From IMG/VR virus record IMGVR_UViG_2541047728_000018: a DNA stretch of 11,200 nt; one strand, 5' to 3'. Under the pieces are notes generated by a model. The model was not told the origin of the DNA. It saw only the letters and a program-made list of their open reading frames with translations, and made no database searches. The first letter of the stretch is position 1. Every line of letters begins with the position of its first letter. The stretch comes from a virus (lineage: Duplodnaviria; Heunggongvirae; Uroviricota; Caudoviricetes). Below are positions 1-10,877 of the stretch, piece after piece. The position numbers and the translations under genes were made by a program.

Positions 1-1242
1 ATGGCGAGAAAAACACACCCATTAACCACAGTGCAGATCAAAGCAGCCAGACCAGCGCAAAAGGAGTACACCCTGCAGGACGGCGGAGGGCTTTTTCTCC
101 TGGTCAAACCGTCTGGATCAAAACTCTGGAGATTTTCCTACTACCGACCATCGGACAAAAAAAGAATATTGCTGAGTTTTGGATCGCTTGAAGATGTTTC
201 CCTGGCTGATGCCAGAAAACGCCGTAGCGAGTACAGGACGTTAATCAGTGCCGGAACTGACCCGCAGGACCACGAGAGGCAAAAAAGAGAGACAGAGGCC
301 CGAAGACAAGGGAACACGTTCGAAAATGTGGCGGCGGCATGGTACCAGGTGAAAATCAGCCAGAATCTGGCCCCCAACACGATTAAAGACATCTGGCGTT
401 CGCTGGATAAATATGTATTCCCGTTCATCGGCAACACGCCAATAGATACCCTCACCGCCCGAAGGTTCGTTGAAGTGCTTACCCCCATCAAGGAGCGCGG
501 CAACCTGGAAACACTCAAGCGGGTTTTACAGCGCGTTAATGAGGTAATGGATTACGCCGCCAACAGTGGGCTGATTGATGCCAATCCGGCTATGAATGTG
601 CGTAAGGCGTTTCCCTCACCTGTAAAAAAACATATGCCAACAATCCGCCCCGAACAGCTGCCGGAGCTTATGCAGGCTTTATCAGTATCGGCAACAGAAC
701 GGCAGACCAGATTACTGATTGAATGGCAGTTACTGACCGTAACCCGTCCCGCCGAAGCGTCATCAACGCGGTGGGATGAAATCAACCTGGACGCGAAGCA
801 ATGGACGATACCTGCCGGACGCATGAAGATGCGCAGGGATCACGTTATCCCGCTTTCCGGTCAGGCTATGGCGGTGCTGGAGGCCATGAAACCAATCAGC
901 CACCACCGCAATTACGTTTTCCCAAGTCTGAAAGACCCACAGCAGCCGATGAACAGCCAGACAGCTAACGCAGCATTGCGGCGTATGGGATTCGCTGGCG
1001 TGCTGGTGTCTCATGGATTACGCGCCATATTCAGCACAGCAGCGAACGAGGAAGGATTCGAGCCGGACGTAATAGAGGCGGCACTTGCCCACGTCGACAC
1101 CAACGAAGTTAGACGGGCATACAACCGGAGCAACTACATAGAAAAACGCATCGTGCTGATGCGCTGGTGGGGCGAATTTGTCGAGGCTGCGGCGACGGGC
1201 GTAACCCTCGCCAGTGGTAAAAGGGGTATCCGAGCCGTGTAG
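1..1242 (+). CDS. int: Tyrosine-type site-specific integrase, P4-like family
   Basis: 413-aa ORF. N-terminal arm-binding-type motif (GGGLFLLVKPSGSKLWRFSYY) typical of P4-family integrases; C-terminal catalytic signature VTRPAEA (Arg), HGLRAIFST (H-x-x-R) and RRAYNRSNY (Tyr). Sits at the element boundary, as expected for an island integrase. Confidence 0.9.
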   Translation: MARKTHPLTTVQIKAARPAQKEYTLQDGGGLFLLVKPSGSKLWRFSYYRPSDKKRILLSFGSLEDVSLADARKRRSEYRTLISAGTDPQDHERQKRETEARRQGNTFENVAAAWYQVKISQNLAPNTIKDIWRSLDKYVFPFIGNTPIDTLTARRFVEVLTPIKERGNLETLKRVLQRVNEVMDYAANSGLIDANPAMNVRKAFPSPVKKHMPTIRPEQLPELMQALSVSATERQTRLLIEWQLLTVTRPAEASSTRWDEINLDAKQWTIPAGRMKMRRDHVIPLSGQAMAVLEAMKPISHHRNYVFPSLKDPQQPMNSQTANAALRRMGFAGVLVSHGLRAIFSTAANEEGFEPDVIEAALAHVDTNEVRRAYNRSNYIEKRIVLMRWWGEFVEAAATGVTLASGKRGIRAV

Positions 1243-1319: not shown

Positions 1320-1571
1320 GTGAAACATGAAACCGTTAAGATGCAAAAAAATATCAGATGCAATTGCGACGGGCTGCAACTGGCCCTGATGGTTCAGCAT
1401 GAATTTTGGTCAACCTACGATCCGGAGGACAGGACGACGGCCCCATCAAAAAAACAGGTAGTAGATTTTCTGGTATCCCGTGGCGCTTCCAGAAATCTGG
1501 CGGTAAGTATTGATAAGGTCGTACGTCCGGCATCTATGAAGATCGGAGGCAGGCCCAAAAAATGGCGGTAA
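1320..1571 (+). CDS. Small hypothetical protein (83 aa), possibly a truncated AlpA/excisionase-like HTH
   Basis: ORF with GTG (1320) or ATG (1341) start, preceded by a perfect TATAAT at 1290-1295 and followed by a strong intrinsic terminator. The C-terminal motif VRPASMKIGGRPKKW resembles the P-x-P-x-K-(L/I)-G-x-R-x-x-x-W wing motif of AlpA/Xis-type proteins. Confidence 0.4.
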   Translation: MKHETVKMQKNIRCNCDGLQLALMVQHEFWSTYDPEDRTTAPSKKQVVDFLVSRGASRNLAVSIDKVVRPASMKIGGRPKKWR

Positions 1572-1581
1572 CAATCCTGGA

Positions 1582-1606
1582 AGCGGCAGAAATGCCGCTT
1601 TTTTTA
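1582..1606 (+). terminator. Rho-independent terminator
   Basis: Stem AGCGGCA / TGCCGCT with GAAA loop, followed by a run of 7 T, immediately after the stop codon at 1569-1571. Confidence 0.7.
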
Positions 1607-1632: not shown

Positions 1633-1718
1633 AAAAACGGTGTATACCGTTTAAAAACGGTGGGAACTGTTTTTACCCATATCCGATGATTTACCGTATT
1701 TGTCACCGGAATACACCG
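1633..1718 (+). promoter_or_regulatory. Cluster of dyad symmetries and direct repeats upstream of alpA (candidate operator region)
   Basis: AAAAACGGTG repeated at 1633-1642 and 1653-1662; palindrome ACCGTTT-AA-AAACGGT at 1646-1661; CACCGG-AATA-CACCGG at 1703-1718. Confidence 0.3.
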
Positions 1719-1738
1719 GATTCACAAGGTAAATCACG

Positions 1739-1945
1739 ATGGAAGCAATCAGAAAAATTATCTTTCGCCAGGAAGTAAAAAAAATTATCCACATCAAGGC
1801 AGACAGCACGCTGCAAAGCATGATCAACGCCGGAGAATTTCCGCAGGGTTTTCGCGTTGGTTTACGCCGTCGCGGATGGTATGAGGATGATGTGTTGGCC
1901 TGGCAGAAAGAACGCGAACAGGAAGCACGCGGAACGGCTGCTTAA
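1739..1945 (+). CDS. alpA: AlpA-family phage transcriptional regulator / excisionase-like HTH protein
   Basis: 68-aa ORF; ...LQSMINAGEFPQGFRVGLRRRGWYEDDVLAWQKER matches the AlpA family pattern (helix, then F-P-x-x-x-x-x-G-x-R-x-x-x-W, then acidic tail). Its position after int is typical of P4-like and PICI-like islands. Confidence 0.8.
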   Translation: MEAIRKIIFRQEVKKIIHIKADSTLQSMINAGEFPQGFRVGLRRRGWYEDDVLAWQKEREQEARGTAA

Positions 1946-2528: not shown

Positions 2529-2536
2529 GTATTTAT

Positions 2537-2557
2537 GTGTAATGACACATTACACAC
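2537..2557. promoter_or_regulatory. Perfect 21-bp palindrome TGTGTAATG-ACA-CATTACACA (candidate operator)
   Basis: Perfect 9-bp arms with 3-bp spacer, in the divergent interval between the minus-strand RHH gene and the rightward small-ORF/primase operon. Confidence 0.45.
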
Positions 2558-2562
2558 AATCA

Positions 2563-2607
2563 ACACAAAAAGCAAAGCCCCGCACTGTAGGAGCAGTAAC
2601 GGGGCTT
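2563..2607 (-). terminator. GC-rich hairpin; terminator-like on the minus strand, or a 5' UTR stem-loop of the rightward transcript
   Basis: Stem AAGCCCCG(c)ACTG ... CAGT(aa)CGGGGCTT (2575-2607). On the minus strand it is followed by TGCTTTTTGTG; on the plus strand there is no T tract. Confidence 0.35.
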
Positions 2608-2636
2608 CTAACCAACAACGTAAACTAGGAGCCGTT

Positions 2637-2834
2637 ATGGTTGCCGTAAATCATATACCACACCTTGTACACACACAAACGGCCTTTGTGTGGCGTTTTC
2701 TGGCACTGAGTGCCGGAGAATCTCAAATCATCCACGTAACCGCCTGGACGGAACGCGAAGCGCGTAGCCGTTGCCCGTCCGGTTGTGTTGCTGTATTTGC
2801 TGCCCGTATTCGCCAGGGGTCACATCATGCGTAA
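2637..2834 (+). CDS. Small protein (65 aa) with FVWRF...TEREAR...ARIRQG-SHA domain; possibly Icd-like (tentative)
   Basis: ATG at 2637 with AGGAG SD 5 nt upstream. The C-terminus is paralogous to the C-terminus of the next ORF. Family assignment is from memory of typical P4-like island annotations, not verified. Confidence 0.5.
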   Translation: MVAVNHIPHLVHTQTAFVWRFLALSAGESQIIHVTAWTEREARSRCPSGCVAVFAARIRQGSHHA

Positions 2835-3291
2835 AAACCGCTTGCAAAAAATTATCACGGGGCTGTATGCTTCCCCCGTCGCCCACATGGCGACCGGGTT
2901 TAGCAGCCTGAATACATCTGGCGGACAGCCGCCCACATCCGATAAGCGGTTTTTTTGTGTCCGTAAACCTACCCATACCCGCATTATGGCGGGGCGTAAC
3001 GGGGGAGCCTTTGTGCTCGCTGGTTTCCAGATGACCAGTCTGCTAACCCTGTTACGTCTCGCCACCATGTTTAGCAGCGTAGTAGCGAGACTCCTTAAAA
3101 TTCATCTGGGAGCCTTTCACATGGCTGTATTCGCACGCCCTTATTTTGTCTGGCGCTTTATGCAGTGCCTGACAGACAGTATTGCAATATTCACCGTTAC
3201 CGCTGCCACTGAGCGCGAAGCACGTGCACAGCTGCCGCACGCACATCTTATTTTTGTCGCCCGTATTCGCCAGGGGGGGAGTCATGCATAA
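2827..3291 (+). CDS. Protein (154 aa) whose C-terminal ~56 aa are paralogous to the preceding small ORF; alternative internal start at 3121
   Basis: Start overlaps the upstream stop in ATGCGTAA (2827-2834). C-terminus FVWRFMQCLTDSIAIFTVTAATEREARAQLPHAHLIFVARIRQGGSHA. ATG at 3121 has a GGGAG SD and would give a 56-aa paralog instead. Confidence 0.35.
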   Translation: MRKNRLQKIITGLYASPVAHMATGFSSLNTSGGQPPTSDKRFFCVRKPTHTRIMAGRNGGAFVLAGFQMTSLLTLLRLATMFSSVVARLLKIHLGAFHMAVFARPYFVWRFMQCLTDSIAIFTVTAATEREARAQLPHAHLIFVARIRQGGSHA

Positions 3292-3516: not shown

Positions 3517-3816
3517 ATGAAAAATAAAAATTCTGGCGTTACTGCCAGCGGCCCCGCTCGTCCTGAATTTATGAACGGCGATATTTACCGCGATAAATAT
3601 GGCGGCATGGTAACGATTAAAGGCGTGGCAGAACGGCGCATCACCTACCGTCGTGAAGGCTACGAATATGATTGCGTGATGCCTGTTTATCAGTTTGATC
3701 GTGATTTTTCTCTGGTGCAGGCAGCGCCCCGTAGTGTGCCCACCAGCAGGGAGAAAGCACGCGCCAATATTCAGGAAATAAAAAAGATGCTTAACGTATT
3801 CAGGGGTAAAAAATGA
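3517..3816 (+). CDS. Hypothetical protein (99 aa), translationally coupled to the primase
   Basis: SD GGAGAA upstream; its stop overlaps the primase start in ATGA (3813-3816). Confidence 0.55.
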   Translation: MKNKNSGVTASGPARPEFMNGDIYRDKYGGMVTIKGVAERRITYRREGYEYDCVMPVYQFDRDFSLVQAAPRSVPTSREKARANIQEIKKMLNVFRGKK

Positions 3817-5561
3817 AACTGGCACCGAACGTAAAAAAACAGCCACGCGGAATAAAACACAAAGACACAGAGGTAATTATTTTCGCGGGTAGTGATGCCT
3901 GGTCGCACGCGAAACAATGGCAGGAGCAGGATGGCCCCGCATCCGGCGATAATGTGCCGCCTGTGTGGCTTGGGCCAAATCAGCTTGCCGAACTTGATGC
4001 ACTGAAAATTGTTCCGGATGGAAAAAAACGCGTAAGGCTGTACCAGGCCGGAGAACTGGATTTGGTGGAGACCAAAAAGATTGGTCAGAAGCTGGCGGCG
4101 GCAGATATTCAGGACGCAAATTTTTACCCCGAAGGAATGCACGTCCAGAAGTGTGAAAACTGGCGGCGCTATCTGAATGCTGAGCGTGAAAATATTGCCG
4201 CAGGGCTTACCATGCCGGAGCAGAAAAATACGCAACTGGCACAAATGGCAGACAGTGAGCGCGCGCAGCTGCTTGCCGAGCGCTTTGATGGCGTTTGTGT
4301 GCATCCTGAAAGTGAAATCGTTCACGTATGGCGCGGCGGGGTATGGTGTCCGGTCAGCACAATGGAGCTGAGCCGCGAAATGGTGGCGATCTATTCAGAG
4401 CACAGGGCCACTTTCAGCAAGCGCGTAATCAATAACGCCGTGGAAGCGTTAAAAGTTATTGCCGAACCAATGGGCGAGCCGTCCGGCTATTTGCTGCCGT
4501 TCGCCAATGGTGCGCTTGACCTGAAAACGGGGGAATTTTCCCCGCACACGCCGGAGAACTGGATCACCACGCACAACGGCATTGAGTACACGCCACCAGC
4601 ACCCGGGGAGAACATCCGCGATAACGCGCCAAACTTTCATAAATGGCTTGAGCACGCAGCCGGAAAAGACCCGAGCAAGATGATGCGTATATGTGCCGCG
4701 CTGTACATGATTATGGCGAACCGGTACGACTGGCAGATGTTTATTGAGGCCACCGGAGACGGCGGGAGCGGTAAAAGTACATTCACACACATAGCCAGCC
4801 TTCTGGCAGGGAAACAGAACACGGTAAGCGCTGAAATGACATCGCTTGATGATGCTGGTGGACGTGCGCAGGTTGTCGGGAGTCGTCTTATCGTCCTGGC
4901 TGACCAGCCGAAATATACAGGCGAAGGAACGGGCATCAAGAAAATCACAGGCGGCGACCCCGTGGAAGTTAACCCGAAATATGAAAAGCGTTTCACGGCG
5001 GTAATCAGGGCGGTGGTGCTGGCGACCAACAACAACCCGATGATATTCACCGAACGGGCCGGAGGTGTGGCACGTCGTCGCGTGATTTTCCGTTTCGACA
5101 ATATCGTCAGTGAGGCCGAAAAAGACAGGGAGCTACCGGAAAAGATCGCGGCTGAAATCCCTGTCATTATCCGCCGATTGCTGGCGAACTTTACCGACCC
5201 TGAGAAGGCACGGGCTTTACTACTGGAACAGCGTGACGGTGATGAAGCTCTGGCAATAAAGCAACAGACGGATCCGGTTATTGAGTTTTGCCAGTTCCTG
5301 AATTTTCTGGAGGAAGCACGCGGCCTGATGATGGGCGGCGGTGGCGATTCAGTGAAGTACACGACCAGAAACAGCCTTTACCGCGTCTATCTGGCGTTTA
5401 TGGCGTACGCAGGCAGGAGCAAACCGCTAAACGTAAATGACTTTGGCAAGGCTATGAAGCCAGCCGCGAAAGTTTACGGACATGAATATATTACGCGGAA
5501 AGTTAAGGGAGTAACGCAGACTAACGCAATAACAACAGACGAGTGCGACGCGTTTTTATAA
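3813..5561 (+). CDS. Phage/plasmid primase-helicase, P4 alpha-like (D5_N / primase C-terminal type)
   Basis: 582-aa ORF with Walker A motif GDGGSGKST; overall layout of P4-family primase/helicase C-terminal region; placed between alpA and an iteron origin as in P4-like and PICI replicons. Confidence 0.85.
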   Translation: MKLAPNVKKQPRGIKHKDTEVIIFAGSDAWSHAKQWQEQDGPASGDNVPPVWLGPNQLAELDALKIVPDGKKRVRLYQAGELDLVETKKIGQKLAAADIQDANFYPEGMHVQKCENWRRYLNAERENIAAGLTMPEQKNTQLAQMADSERAQLLAERFDGVCVHPESEIVHVWRGGVWCPVSTMELSREMVAIYSEHRATFSKRVINNAVEALKVIAEPMGEPSGYLLPFANGALDLKTGEFSPHTPENWITTHNGIEYTPPAPGENIRDNAPNFHKWLEHAAGKDPSKMMRICAALYMIMANRYDWQMFIEATGDGGSGKSTFTHIASLLAGKQNTVSAEMTSLDDAGGRAQVVGSRLIVLADQPKYTGEGTGIKKITGGDPVEVNPKYEKRFTAVIRAVVLATNNNPMIFTERAGGVARRRVIFRFDNIVSEAEKDRELPEKIAAEIPVIIRRLLANFTDPEKARALLLEQRDGDEALAIKQQTDPVIEFCQFLNFLEEARGLMMGGGGDSVKYTTRNSLYRVYLAFMAYAGRSKPLNVNDFGKAMKPAAKVYGHEYITRKVKGVTQTNAITTDECDAFL

Positions 5562-6804: not shown

Positions 6805-6877
6805 TATGAGGCTTTTTGGTGCACTGACACACATGATCGGGATCATCATTTCATAATTTGCAACACAACTCAATATC

Positions 6878-6962: not shown

Positions 6963-7169
6963 ATGGCTGAAGAGAAAAAAGGCGGTGTTTCGGTGTACAT
7001 AAGCCCCGAAATCGTGGAGGTGCTCAAGCAGCGCCACAAAAAAAACTATGAGGCTGGCGTGGCGGCTGGACTGGATCCGCTGATGACGCCGGAGCCGTCG
7101 ATAGGTTCACTTGTACGCTCTTATTTACTTGCGGCGCTTGGGATGCATAAAAATTATGGGGGTGAATAA
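6963..7169 (+). CDS. Hypothetical protein (68 aa), first gene of the head module
   Basis: ORF whose stop (TAA 7167-7169) overlaps the capsid gene ATG (7169-7171); purine-rich SD upstream. Confidence 0.45.
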   Translation: MAEEKKGGVSVYISPEIVEVLKQRHKKNYEAGVAAGLDPLMTPEPSIGSLVRSYLLAALGMHKNYGGE

Positions 7170-8224
7170 TGGCAGGCAAAGCAACGGCACTTAACACTAA
7201 CCAGCTTTTCATGTACCTGAATCGCGGGGATATTGCGGATTTTAAATTCAGCCCTCTGTTTACCACGCTGTTTTTCCCGAACGTGGCGACATTCAGCACG
7301 CAAAACATCATGCTGGATACCCTGGACATTGAAGAAGTCACCATGTCGGCGTTTTGTTCGCCTATGGTGGGTAGCCAGGTTCAGCGCGATAAAGGGTACG
7401 AAACCAGCACAATCAAACCTGGCTACATGAAGCCAAAGCACGAAATCGATCCAACGAAAACCATCATGCGCATGGCTGGAGAAGATCCGGCACAGCTTAA
7501 CGACCCTACCTATCGCCGTATGCGCCTGATTACTGGCAACATGCGCCGCCAGATAAACGCCATTAAGGCACGCGTGGAATGGCTGGCGGTGAATGCGGTA
7601 ACGACCGGAAAAAACATCATTGAGGGCGAAGGCATAGAACGCTATGAAATCGACTGGAAAATACCGGAAAACTGCATCATAGAGCAGGCCAAGGGTAAAA
7701 AATGGTCCGAGCAGGATAAAGACATGCACGACCCAATCTATGACATCGAGCTTTATGCTGATCAGGCTGGTTGCCCCGCAAACGTCATGATTATGGGCGC
7801 TGAGGTATGGCGAACGTTACGCAGCTTTAAAAAATTCCGTGAGCTGTACGATCTTTCCCGTGGTTCAGAGTCCGCCGCAGAGCTGGCCTGTAAAAACCTG
7901 GGCGAAGTGGTGAGCTTTAAAGGCTATCTGGGCGATATTGCCCTTATCGTCTATTCCGGCAAATACACTGACAGCGACGGCACAGAAAAATATTTCCTTG
8001 AGCCTGATTTGCTGGTTCTGGGCAGCACCAACAATAAAGGGCTGGTGGCCTATGGTGCGATTATGGATCAGGACGCAGTAAGAACGGGCGCAACGCAAAA
8101 CATGTTTTACCCGAAAAACTGGATTGAGGACGGCGATCCGGCGATTGAGTACGTGCAGACGCACAGCGCACCGCAGCCGGTTCCGGCAGATATTCGCAAA
8201 TTTGTTACCGTCAAAATTGGTTAA
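7169..8224 (+). CDS. Major capsid protein, lambda gpE family
   Basis: 351 aa. Collinear similarity to lambda gpE recalled from memory: KFSPLFTTLFFPN vs KFDPLFLRLFFRE; PGYMKPKHEIDP vs PGYVKPKHEVNP; DPTYRRMRLITGNMR vs DPAYRRRRIIMQNMR; YPKNWIEDGDPAIEYVQTHSAP vs YPKNWVTTGDPAREFTMIQSAP. Good SD GGGGGTGA. Confidence 0.85.
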   Translation: MAGKATALNTNQLFMYLNRGDIADFKFSPLFTTLFFPNVATFSTQNIMLDTLDIEEVTMSAFCSPMVGSQVQRDKGYETSTIKPGYMKPKHEIDPTKTIMRMAGEDPAQLNDPTYRRMRLITGNMRRQINAIKARVEWLAVNAVTTGKNIIEGEGIERYEIDWKIPENCIIEQAKGKKWSEQDKDMHDPIYDIELYADQAGCPANVMIMGAEVWRTLRSFKKFRELYDLSRGSESAAELACKNLGEVVSFKGYLGDIALIVYSGKYTDSDGTEKYFLEPDLLVLGSTNNKGLVAYGAIMDQDAVRTGATQNMFYPKNWIEDGDPAIEYVQTHSAPQPVPADIRKFVTVKIG

Positions 8225-8235
8225 CGGGGGATTCT

Positions 8236-8571
8236 ATGGACACTCCATACATTGAGTTATTTGCAGGCAGTCAGCAGGTCGCCACGACGCTGGTACATTT
8301 TGCCGCTGATGCTGGCGTTATTCAGGAATTTACCCCGCTGATGCTGGCGGACAATGGCGAGTTTAAGCCGTGGGATGGTAAGGAATCTGGCAAGGCTGTT
8401 TATCTGACCTCGTACCCTGTGGACACGTCAAAGCAGAAATCAGCACAGTGTTACAAGACGGGGATATTCAATATTGCCGCCGTTAACTGGCCTGAGAGCG
8501 TCGACACCGATGCGAAAAAATGCGCCGCCTTTGCGGGTTCTGGCGTATCCGTTCAGCCGCTGGCCCGATAA
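8236..8571 (+). CDS. Head decoration protein, lambda gpD-like
   Basis: 111 aa. TPLMLADNGEFKPWDG vs gpD TPLMLDTSSRKLVAWDG; YKTGIFNIAAVNWPESVDTDAKKCAAFAGSGVSVQ vs [43 protein letters not shown]. Confidence 0.75.
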   Translation: MDTPYIELFAGSQQVATTLVHFAADAGVIQEFTPLMLADNGEFKPWDGKESGKAVYLTSYPVDTSKQKSAQCYKTGIFNIAAVNWPESVDTDAKKCAAFAGSGVSVQPLAR

Positions 8572-8583
8572 GCAGGGGGAACG

Positions 8584-8997
8584 ATGGCAACGAATGAAAG
8601 CATCATGACGCTACCGCTGGCGAGTAAATTTAAAGCCGAAGCGCGGGCAATGGCTGACAGAGGTTTATCAACCTATGAGGCCGTATATCAACTAAACAAA
8701 CTGGAAGAGCAGGACAAGCCGCGCGCTGATGCGATTATGGCGCTTGATGAATCTGGCGACTATCAGCCGCTGTTACGTGCAATGGCAAACGTGCCTTGTA
8801 TCGATGTTGGTACGGCTAAAAGCATCCTTAGCATGACCATAGAGCAGGAACGTCCGAAGGTTGCGCCGGAACTTACTGCAGCCTTTGAAAACTTTATGGA
8901 CATGCACAGCCCGCAAGCCGTATCAGCTGGCATGGCATACGATGGCAGAAACCAGGGCGATGACGGCGACATCGATCGCATACTGAAAACCATCTGA
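8584..8997 (+). CDS. Hypothetical protein (137 aa) in the head module
   Basis: Good SD AGGGGGA, tight spacing after the decoration gene, followed by a terminator. No recognisable family. Confidence 0.5.
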   Translation: MATNESIMTLPLASKFKAEARAMADRGLSTYEAVYQLNKLEEQDKPRADAIMALDESGDYQPLLRAMANVPCIDVGTAKSILSMTIEQERPKVAPELTAAFENFMDMHSPQAVSAGMAYDGRNQGDDGDIDRILKTI

Positions 8998-9003
8998 GAC
9001 AAG

Positions 9004-9027
9004 GCCGGAGAAATCCGGCTTTTTTTT
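9004..9027 (+). terminator. Rho-independent terminator closing the head module
   Basis: Stem GCCGGA / TCCGGC with GAAA loop, followed by 8 T. Confidence 0.65.
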
Positions 9028-9029
9028 AT

Positions 9030-9138
9030 GGGTCCTTTCCGGCATATGGACCCGTTACGGGGCGGCGACCTCGCGGTTTTTCGCTATTTATGAGCTTTTT
9101 CAGGGGGGTGGTGGTGGTTTTGTTGTTTGCTCTATCTT
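9030..9138 (+). other. cos site (cosQ-like, lambda-identical cosN, non-lambda cosB) upstream of the Nu1-like gene
   Basis: GGGTCCTTTCCGG (9030-9042) matches the lambda right-end cosQ-proximal sequence; CGTTACGGGGCGGCGACCTCGCGG carries the lambda 12-nt cohesive end GGGCGGCGACCT (9060-9071). Downstream sequence diverges from lambda cosB (no CGTTTCC-type R sites). Confidence 0.7.
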
Positions 9139-9165
9139 TATGAATGAAAAGGGAAAGATGCAAAC

Positions 9166-9203
9166 AATACACCAACCTGAAGCAGTAATTAAGTTGGTGT
9201 ATT
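9166..9203. promoter_or_regulatory. Perfect 11-bp inverted repeat AATACACCAAC / GTTGGTGTATT just upstream of the Nu1-like start codon
   Basis: Arms at 9166-9176 and 9193-9203 with 16-nt spacer; the right arm ends 2 nt before the ATG at 9205. Could be a cosB-type binding site or an RBS-occluding stem-loop. Confidence 0.3.
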
Positions 9204-9204
9204 A

Positions 9205-9747
9205 ATGAAATCGCACCTGATGAACAAAAAAAACATGGCGAAAAGCTGCCGTGTAAGTGCGACAGCGTTCGACAAGTGGGGAGTGACTCCCGTTGAACGT
9301 AAAGGCCGTGAGGCGTTTTACGATGTTGCCAGCGTGATAGACAATAGGGTTAACAATGCAATTAGCCAGCTTACAAACGACAAAGGCGATATTGATGATG
9401 ATGAACTCTTACGAGTCAGGATCAGATTACTGACAGCACAGGCGGAGGCGCAGGAACTTAAAAACGAGCGCGATCGCGGTGACGTGATTGATACTGAGTT
9501 TTGCCTGTACGCGCTTTCAAAGCTGGCGAGTCAGATTTCATCAATCATGGACAGCCTCCCGCTTACTATGCAAAGGAGCTTCCCACAGATTACCCCCGCC
9601 ATGCTGGATAGGCTTAAAAGGGAAGTGGTTAAAGCCTGTAATGCCAGTGCCAGAGTTGCCGACAACCTCCCACAGATACTGGCTGATTACTTGAAAGAAA
9701 CAACCGGAAACGTACCGGAAAAGTTGCTACAGAAGAAAGGCGAGTAA
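9205..9747 (+). CDS. Terminase small subunit, lambda Nu1-like (possible packaging-redirection TerS)
   Basis: 180 aa. LLTAQAEAQELKNERDRGDVIDTEFCLYALSKLASQISSIMDSLPLTMQRSFPQI vs lambda Nu1 LTRAQADAQELKNARDSAEVVETAFCTFVLSRIAGEIASILDGLPLSVQRRFPEL; N-terminal wHTH region (NKKNMAKSC...FYDVASVI) is related but diverged. Alternative starts at 9220 or 9235; SD is weak. Confidence 0.8.
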   Translation: MKSHLMNKKNMAKSCRVSATAFDKWGVTPVERKGREAFYDVASVIDNRVNNAISQLTNDKGDIDDDELLRVRIRLLTAQAEAQELKNERDRGDVIDTEFCLYALSKLASQISSIMDSLPLTMQRSFPQITPAMLDRLKREVVKACNASARVADNLPQILADYLKETTGNVPEKLLQKKGE

Positions 9748-10462: not shown

Positions 10463-10877
10463 CATTGGCGTAATCCGGCGCGGTAACTTGCTGAACTTAA
10501 AGCAAAGCGCAAAATTGCGCTGGCTGGTGGGCATGATGCCGATATGGTGATCCCCATAACGGAAATATCCACCAGCACGGCAACGGCAGAATAGCCACAA
10601 CACAGAAAAACCACGAATATGGGGTTTTTGTTATGGCATGGGCATGATGACCGCCCCTGCTCTGAATGGTGGAAATCACCACGCAGATCATCCACCAGCT
10701 TCGTTTTTATAAATTAAACATCCGGGAAAATCCGACCCTGAATTGTGCATTTTTTCAGCAAATCATTTTAGTTATACGTTTGGTTATACGGTTTAAAAGT
10801 TGAATCATATACATTATTTTAAATCATGAAGTTACACGCTCAATTAAACTACTCTCGTGGACCAAAAATCCCAAGAA

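Follow-up and report, generated by a model that had tools for sequence, protein, structure and literature searches.

Gram-negative phage-inducible chromosomal islands (PICIs) constitute widespread gene-transfer vehicles, and their induction hinges on the switch-on of alpA. The alpA promoter is both autoactivated and helper-induced in EcCICFT073 (PMC6092414) as well as in EcCIMP1 (PMC11773190). Helper induction of alpA in these related islands is independent of SOS and partly independent of AlpA (PMC6092414; PMC11773190); an EcCIMP1 strain mutated in alpA still shows it, though more weakly (PMC11773190), and overexpression of AlpA in EcCICFT073 leads to excision without raised int expression (PMC6092414). 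Taken together, the published genetics indicate that two inputs are needed, namely AlpA feedback and a helper-derived signal. The published work that we found names neither the helper-encoded inducer nor the DNA sites of Gram-negative PICI induction, and maps no binding sites at the alpA promoter of EcCICFT073 or EcCIMP1. We have analysed the 11,200-nt stretch of IMG/VR record IMGVR_UViG_2541047728_000018 (hereafter the window), which is an EcCICFT073-type Gram-negative PICI of Escherichia coli located at tRNA-Pro, and in particular its positions 1633-1738, directly upstream of alpA, where an earlier reading of the sequence (hereafter the original prediction) had noticed dense dyad symmetries. 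On balance, we hold it somewhat probable that this segment is a conserved cis-regulatory region of the alpA promoter, with two candidate classes of boxes arranged in helical-phase units; which protein binds which class, the position of the promoter and the sign of regulation are what we infer from that arrangement.

Among described systems, P2 Cox at the PLL promoter of satellite P4 is the closest mechanistic precedent for a helper input at an alpA promoter, since Cox binds 10-11-bp phased, mixed-orientation boxes upstream of PLL, derepressing P4 (PMC3936717). PLL resembles the alpA promoter as a satellite promoter driving an AlpA/Vis-type gene (vis), in that case as the target of a helper excisionase-regulator; the Cox protein family acts at att as well, and the island in the window has a P4-type C4/CI immunity RNA and a P4-type primase. 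In P4, Vis represses PLL. The two systems differ in that positions 1603-1745 of the window contain no match to the cox-box (TTAAASNCM, searched as TTAAA(G/C)NC(A/C)), even with one mismatch, and none to the Ogr/Delta TGT-N12-ACA dyad, and in that this island family has lambdoid rather than P2-like helpers. A second likeness is to the arrays bound by recombination directionality factors (RDFs), such as X1-X1.5-X2 of lambda Xis, those of P2 Cox at attP and, reportedly, of KplE1 TorI at attL. These consist of short boxes spaced by one helical turn beside the core and are read by small winged-helix proteins, and the best fold matches of our AlpA model are excisionases; the lambda attP layout was checked for comparison. 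In contrast to such arrays, the island in the window reuses the same type of box at the promoter of the regulator itself and adds a second, palindromic class. The AlpA of Pseudomonas aeruginosa appears to share its Pfam family with the AlpA of the window. It acts by Q-like antitermination through a GGGACG-N5-GGTA element between −35 and −10, that is, one element inside the promoter spacer instead of the multiple boxes seen here. A string resembling that element (ABE) at 1692-1706, on the minus strand and with two mismatches, was rejected as lying on the wrong strand, about 0.1 such matches being expected by chance.

The repeats listed in the original prediction are all found where it had placed them (Table 1). 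Its AAACGG-N6-CCGTTT is the same object as the first of two 18-bp palindromes, O1 and O2, its 20-bp-spaced repeats are the two units that contain them (80% identity, with AAAAACGGTG repeated at 20-bp spacing), and its CACCGG pair near the start of alpA corresponds to the two CACCGGA boxes. Three of the arms are copies of AAACGGT, at 1635 (+), 1646 (−) and 1655 (+); the fourth, ACTGTTT at 1666-1672, is degenerate. The inner palindrome and the outer arms together form a nested dyad of about 42 bp, which in the cq9-type clade is perfectly palindromic over its entire length except for two 4-nt centres. The centres of O1 and O2 are 20 bp apart (19 in L007). AAACNGT-N4-ACNGTTT matches twice in the 11.2-kb window, both times in the alpA upstream region, which also has the highest CACCG density of the window, with four copies in 140 bp. 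The TTTACCGTATTT block contains a lone TACCGT box (1692-1697) and the sole conserved −10-like hexamers (TACCGT, TATTTN), and the 3' arm of the 9-nt inverted repeat bracketing the CACCGGA boxes overlaps the Shine-Dalgarno sequence AAGG (1726-1729). Taken by itself, the single sequence holds repeats only modestly above chance (p about 0.01-0.03): when the 136-nt intergenic stretch was put through 20,000 rounds of dinucleotide shuffling, 2.7% of the products had a perfect 7-4-7 palindrome and 0.8% had at least three palindromes with no more than one mismatch.

It is the comparison between relatives that carries the case. The alpA upstream regions were taken from complete genomes of four divergence classes and from 45 plus 8 IMG/VR satellite contigs, and one further clade was added via a homologue of ORF76, the small gene between int and alpA. 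In at least five clades, a stretch of about 115 bp before alpA is co-inherited with the gene as a single unit. Among 13 distinct sequences of four clades, 27 of the 30 arm columns are invariant and the central columns are variable throughout (6/6; Fisher p = 4.3e-5), and between-clade differences amount to 1/28 in the arms versus 0.37-0.38 at the third-codon positions of alpA. Because the arms are fixed while the centres vary, the classic picture of a footprint, the palindromes are real and functional-looking. Downstream of them, no column is invariant across clades in 1675-1686, and CACCGGAATA-NN-CCGGA is kept in all clades, with the consensus CACCGGAATA(C/A)(A/G)CCGGA. TTTTACCGTATTT is found in L113 too. 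One scan used the TTTACCGTATTT block as its pattern, and its hits are not independent evidence for the conservation of that block. The sites exist, are under purifying selection and travel with alpA, and one of the box classes is common to attL.

Natural variation does not fall evenly on the two palindromes. The left arm of O1 varies (AAACAGT, AAACTGT, AAATGGT, AAAGGGT, AAACGAT, AAACGTT), its right arm is near-invariant (ACAGTTT in L121 and L123), and its three central nucleotides are different in each clade. The arms of O2 are kept in all the sequences seen with one exception, a C-to-G change in L005; its centre is variable and its right arm, ACTGTTT(TT), invariant. In two variants (L118, L122) one whole 20-bp unit is deleted and a single O2-like palindrome is left, and in two others three CACCGGAATA units with CACCGGA-type boxes are present (L003, 2633-2659; L036, 7987-8013). 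The variants thus change only by whole 10- or 20-bp helical units, as expected for arrays of protein-binding sites. Judged from these alignments, O2 appears to be the constrained site and O1 a dispensable duplicate. Strain 2013C-3033 (L007) differs in its attB and its integrase allele and has an unrelated insert of about 400 bp; here the similarity sets in about 25 nt ahead of O1. Between this insert-bearing region and the operator, its spacer contains four TGAGACAACAT repeats with a period of about 22 bp (2270-2360), and a further pair of ACGGTG half-sites with 10-bp spacing is found at 2474-2493.

The CACCGGA boxes recur at the left attachment site. In the attL arm of the Nissle locus CACCGGA is present at L001 10552, 10562 and 10572, exactly 10 bp apart, the first copy lying 7 nt past the end of tRNA-Pro, and one or two more copies lie nearer to int (including L001 10646). 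There are therefore at least three short boxes, about one helical turn apart, beside the att core, as in an RDF-type array. Over 24.8 kb of chromosome plus island, CACCG is clustered most densely in two places, the attL arm and the alpA upstream region. The assignment of the CACCGG repeats to a box family that appears to be arrayed at attL, as well as the apparent distinction between a constrained O2 and a dispensable O1, goes beyond the original prediction. A different motif, GTTATACG, has four copies in attL (L001 10545-10760, outside the window) and two in the attR arm. It differs from the CACCGGA boxes and probably represents the arm-type sites of the integrase; a comparable doubled motif has been described in related islands (PMC10111431).

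A similar arrangement with other letters is seen in EcCICFT073 (L054), the rest of whose island is alike. It has a doubled GTGTAGTTAAT in both att arms and 10-bp phased boxes common to the att arms and the int-alpA spacer: ACAAC/TTGT boxes in 10-bp phase in attL and attR (6842-6875 and about 18060-18095), six ACAAC(G) boxes in the same phase 3' of int (8188-8247), and GACACAA twice before alpA (8456-8472). These ACAAC/GACACAA boxes are unrelated in sequence to the CACCGGA of the window, so that the two island families compared appear to have allele-specific boxes common to their att arms and alpA promoters. A 7-mer shared by the EcCICFT073 box GACACAAC and the reverse complement of lambda Xis X1 (L112) was set aside, given about 0.3 estimated chance matches.

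The sharing of boxes between attL and the promoter points to a recombination protein as their reader, the most likely one being AlpA. The AlpA of the window scores 17.6 bits against Pfam Phage_AlpA (PF05930), under the gathering score of 21, has no NCBIfam match, and matches the PHROG 'excisionase and transcriptional regulator' with E = 5.5e-7; RefSeq labels its close homologues as AlpA family. By sequence, the AlpA-family excisionase of GIsul2 (PDB 8c3t) comes closest, in a full-length and colinear alignment (E = 0.17), and the same entry is the top fold match of its AF2 model (mean pLDDT 66; prob 0.93, TM 0.63/0.73), followed by Pukovnik Xis, BldC and MerR N-domains, all fold matches having E > 0.1. 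The model suggests a winged-helix protein like Xis, Cox and Vis, with scores that are weak and consistent rather than decisive. AlpA-family proteins function as excisionases (PMC9376610), and several of the fold matches bind tandem repeats as head-to-tail monomers. The AlpA of EcCICFT073 is 27% identical to that of the window. A scan of one genome per species found no AlpA relatives in other species, and the hits of a word-indexed protein search with AlpA were all from E. coli, none with less than 79% identity.

On the most economical reading, AlpA would recognise the CACCGGA boxes in attL as well as those at the promoter of its own gene. It would then combine two functions, that of an excision directionality factor and that of an autoregulator. 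O2, which looks essential, and O1, a duplicated auxiliary copy, would be placed where an activator contacts RNA polymerase at a promoter without a usable −35 element. With the −10 element in the TTTACCGTATTT block, at the TACCGT box, the centre of O2 would lie at about −41 and that of O1 at about −61, positions typical of activators, and the CACCGGA boxes would cover the start site. The plus strand before alpA showed no canonical sigma-70 promoter, in keeping with a promoter that stays silent unless it is activated. O1/O2 would thus be the best candidate for the activating input, be it AlpA positive feedback, a helper-phage inducer, or both, and AlpA may read O1/O2 too, since the CACCG core is common to their arms and the boxes.

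Several observations weigh against this scheme. At both locations the two classes stay strictly apart, all arms being CACCGT/ACTGT and all boxes CCGGA, and this separation argues for two different proteins. In the cq9-type clade the core-proximal boxes of attL are ATCGGA/ATCGGT instead of CACCGGA, while the alpA-proximal boxes are unchanged. The CACCGGA boxes could also be integrase arm-type sites, like the three tandem P' sites of lambda, and the arm domain of the integrase is the main alternative candidate for their reader. The −41/−61 geometry presupposes a guessed −10 in a region where no canonical promoter is detectable. Finally, the arms of O1 and O2 can form a stable RNA or cruciform (z = −4.3).

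The alternative that survives best places a helper-encoded DNA-binding protein, the PICI inducer, on O1/O2, where it would activate the alpA promoter before AlpA takes over via the CACCGGA boxes. We regard it as unlikely, despite the genetics of the related islands, in which the inducer of EcCICFT073 is not named in published work (PMC6092414) and alpA is still induced, although less, in the EcCIMP1 alpA mutant. By analogy with EcCICFT073 and EcCIMP1 (PMC6092414, PMC11773190), the original suggestion that a helper signal may act here seems fair for the promoter as a whole. The palindromes would suit such a protein: they form a distinct class, with CACCGT arms, found only at the alpA promoter and never at attL, their dimer-type symmetry is unlike the head-to-tail arrays typical of Xis-like proteins, and P2 Cox at PLL sets the precedent. 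The phages themselves speak against it. A BLAST search of the operator region against 50,697 GenBank phage records returned chance-level hits only (E = 4), and in IMG/VR 43 of the 45 hits of the double-palindrome scan fell on satellite-sized contigs of 7-14 kb, the two longer ones (L023, 55 kb; L027, 21 kb) carrying an int-alpA intergenic sequence identical to that of the window. The single palindrome gave hits in phages that were scattered or within coding sequences, a recurrent one lying inside a minor-tail gene. A lambdoid CI/Cro operator, with TATCACCGC-type half-sites over 17 bp, is not present either: one half-site with two mismatches was found (1701), without a partner, and the arms of O1/O2 differ from such operators in orientation and spacing. 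We would put forward only tentatively, as an unlikely proposal, that O2/O1 may serve as the docking site of a helper-phage inducer, for example an excisionase-type regulator, with AlpA on the sibling CACCGGA boxes; if so, one box family would wire helper sensing, positive feedback and excision together.

A repressor encoded by the island, removed by the helper in the manner of SaPI Stl, would account for paired palindromes 20 bp apart, which are classic repressor operators. From the multi-site operator of the original prediction, a conserved multi-site non-coding control region directly before alpA stands, whereas a repressor-type operator is not established, because the geometry fits activator sites equally and an RNA leader, though improbable, would be another reading. 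Two island proteins could fill the role. The ribbon-helix-helix (RHH) protein, named as a possible binder in the original prediction, was rejected: the allele of the window is only 15-25% identical to those of Nissle and CFT073 and 97% identical to that of another clade, as in a swappable cassette, yet the alpA regions of the window and Nissle are 99.7% identical. A protein whose allele is swapped without any change of operator is unlikely to be the specific binder, and the spacer upstream of the RHH gene has TGTAATG/CATTACA palindromes of its own (2523-2559), presumably the RHH operator. ORF76 lies immediately upstream of the operator in every clade examined, with 64-96% identity, and EcCICFT073 lacks both ORF76 and the AAACGGT palindromes. 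Being linked to the operator in cis, it may co-occur with it merely by linkage. As a recognisable DNA-binding protein it was rejected and remains a weak candidate: it has a basic GGRPKKW tail, but no Pfam, PHROG or NCBIfam match and no solved relative, and its AF2 model (three helices, pLDDT 80) has no fold match in the PDB. Moreover, no repressor has been found in Gram-negative PICIs, and overexpression of AlpA alone induces the island (PMC6092414). Overall, we consider a repressor of this kind improbable.

A 90-aa protein labelled 'AlpA family [Cooperia oncophora]' (P0036) consists of the N-terminus of ORF76 fused to the C-terminus of AlpA. It arose by loss of the whole control region and evidently stems from E. 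coli contamination in a nematode assembly.

Equally improbable, in our view, is an action at the RNA level, in which the pairing of the O1 left arm with the O2 right arm and of the O1 right arm with the O2 left arm into one long hairpin, together with a stem hiding the Shine-Dalgarno sequence, would control alpA by attenuation or translation. The minimum free energy is −39.6 kcal/mol (z = −4.3), 99% of the cells are paired over 13 sequences versus 44-51% with the partners slid, the outer stem shows A-U/G-U variation, a U5 tract follows the hairpin, and one compensatory exchange of A-U to U-A between clades occurs in the Shine-Dalgarno stem (one pair in 25). However, the palindrome helices themselves show no compensatory changes, and the sequence of the arms is conserved, which pairing alone would not require. 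The natural variants tell against it as well: in clade L113 the Shine-Dalgarno stem is destroyed and all boxes are kept, and the deletion of a 20-bp unit in L118 and L122 abolishes the long hairpin and leaves a normal palindrome. There is a strong terminator immediately upstream, an upstream promoter was not detected, and an Rfam scan returned no family at the control region.

Chance in AT-rich DNA, replication iterons or sites of a host regulator (GntR/FadR-type, IHF, CRP) we consider very improbable, even though the single-sequence p-values reach just 0.01-0.03 and GGT-N-ACC palindromes resemble GntR-family operators, given that the conservation pattern excludes chance, that iterons would number two units only and lie far from the primase gene while the published PICI ori is downstream of pri, and that no IHF, CRP, CII, cox-box or Ogr-type pattern, nor boxA, matched in the control region.

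What these data describe is not a new system; it is most likely a hitherto unmapped case of a switch type already known, the regulator-excisionase box array at a satellite control promoter. The analysis narrows the control region of a common E. coli alpA allele, which 277 of 5,426 complete genomes carry (those of Nissle 1917 and ATCC 25922 among them), down to four short elements, providing a precise DNA target for the question of PICI induction, and the one-operator and three-box (strain 2018-166) natural variants constitute ready-made mutants.

Table 1. Positions of the control-region elements and of the other features in the window
Feature	Positions	Strand	Remarks
O1, 18-bp palindrome AAACGGT-GTAT-ACCGTTT	1635-1652		within first 20-bp unit, 1633-1652
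O2, 18-bp palindrome AAACGGT-GGGA-ACTGTTT	1655-1672		within second 20-bp unit, 1653-1672
Inner palindrome ACCGTTT-AA-AAACGGT	1646-1661		O1 right arm plus O2 left arm
Linker	1676-1689		unconserved
Invariant block TTTACCGTATTT	1690-1701	+	same in all aligned clades
Two CACCGGA boxes	1704-1710 and 1714-1720	+	10-bp spacing; end 19 nt before alpA ATG (1739)
9-nt inverted repeat TGATTTACC / GGTAAATCA	1687-1695 and 1728-1736		plus strand; brackets the CACCGGA boxes
alpA, regulated gene	1739-1945	+	68 aa
Intrinsic terminator	1579-1602	+	10-pair stem, then T run
ORF76, small conserved gene	1341-1571	+	between int and alpA
int, P4-like tyrosine integrase	1-1242		left end; co-oriented with alpA
RHH gene (YlcI-YnfO-like)	2328-2507	−	reverse-oriented, in variable zone with Icd-like remnants
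C4/CI-type antisense RNA	2982-3069	+	in variable zone; Rfam C4, 72.7 bits, E = 5e-13
D5-type (P4-type) primase	3813-5561		DUF4222 gene also in island
Doubled GTTATACG-N4-GTTATACG motif	10771-10790	+	attR arm
attR core	10852-10866	+	imperfect repeat of tRNA-Pro 3' end; right end of island

The island itself shows the gene content of an EcCICFT073-type PICI, with int and alpA at the left, a primase and replication module, and phage-derived late genes, its other genes including those for an SSB, a lambda E-like capsid protein, a D-like decoration protein and a Nu1-type small terminase (TerS). Site-specific integration is indicated by the insertion point in Nissle 1917 and ATCC 25922, the tRNA-Pro gene adjoining yejM, by the doubled motifs in both arms, and by the attR core, CTCTCGTGGACCAAA, which imperfectly repeats the tRNA end CTCTCGTGCCGACCAAA (L001); the island provides a replacement terminator for the tRNA. 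The int-alpA segment 1240-2000 is 99.7% identical to the island of E. coli Nissle 1917 and, with 99.7-100% identity, is present in 193 complete genomes of E. coli, among which are Nissle 1917 and ATCC 25922. The prototype island of CFT073 has the same gene order, with replication and late modules in common, and its replication zone encodes several proteins identical to their counterparts in the Nissle copy of the window island, whereas its int-alpA module differs. Both islands contain lambda E-like capsid and D-like decoration homologues without portal, protease or large terminase, and in a comparison of 7169-9747 of the window with 14669-17094 of EcCICFT073 (L054) the former has the Nu1-type small terminase gene where the latter has a 435-nt gene of no assigned family.

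Upstream of the control region, the terminator closes the int-ORF76 transcription unit and is the upstream limit of the region that controls alpA; its position is kept in relatives, with a differing sequence in the cq9-type clade. In the variable zone, the ORFs 1960-2628 and 2535-3291 overlap, are both Icd-like and end in near-identical ...ARIRQG(G)SHA tails, as a duplicated and partly decayed Icd-like module. The C4 RNA sits between two Icd-like ORFs and belongs to the class of P1/P7 C4 and the P4 CI immunity RNA, so that the island appears to have P4-type RNA immunity. Directly 3' of alpA, a hairpin of 14 pairs (1972-2004) has T runs on both strands, that on the plus strand being the weaker. 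This hairpin may act as a bidirectional terminator between alpA and the variable zone, which would matter if AlpA were an antiterminator as in P. aeruginosa.

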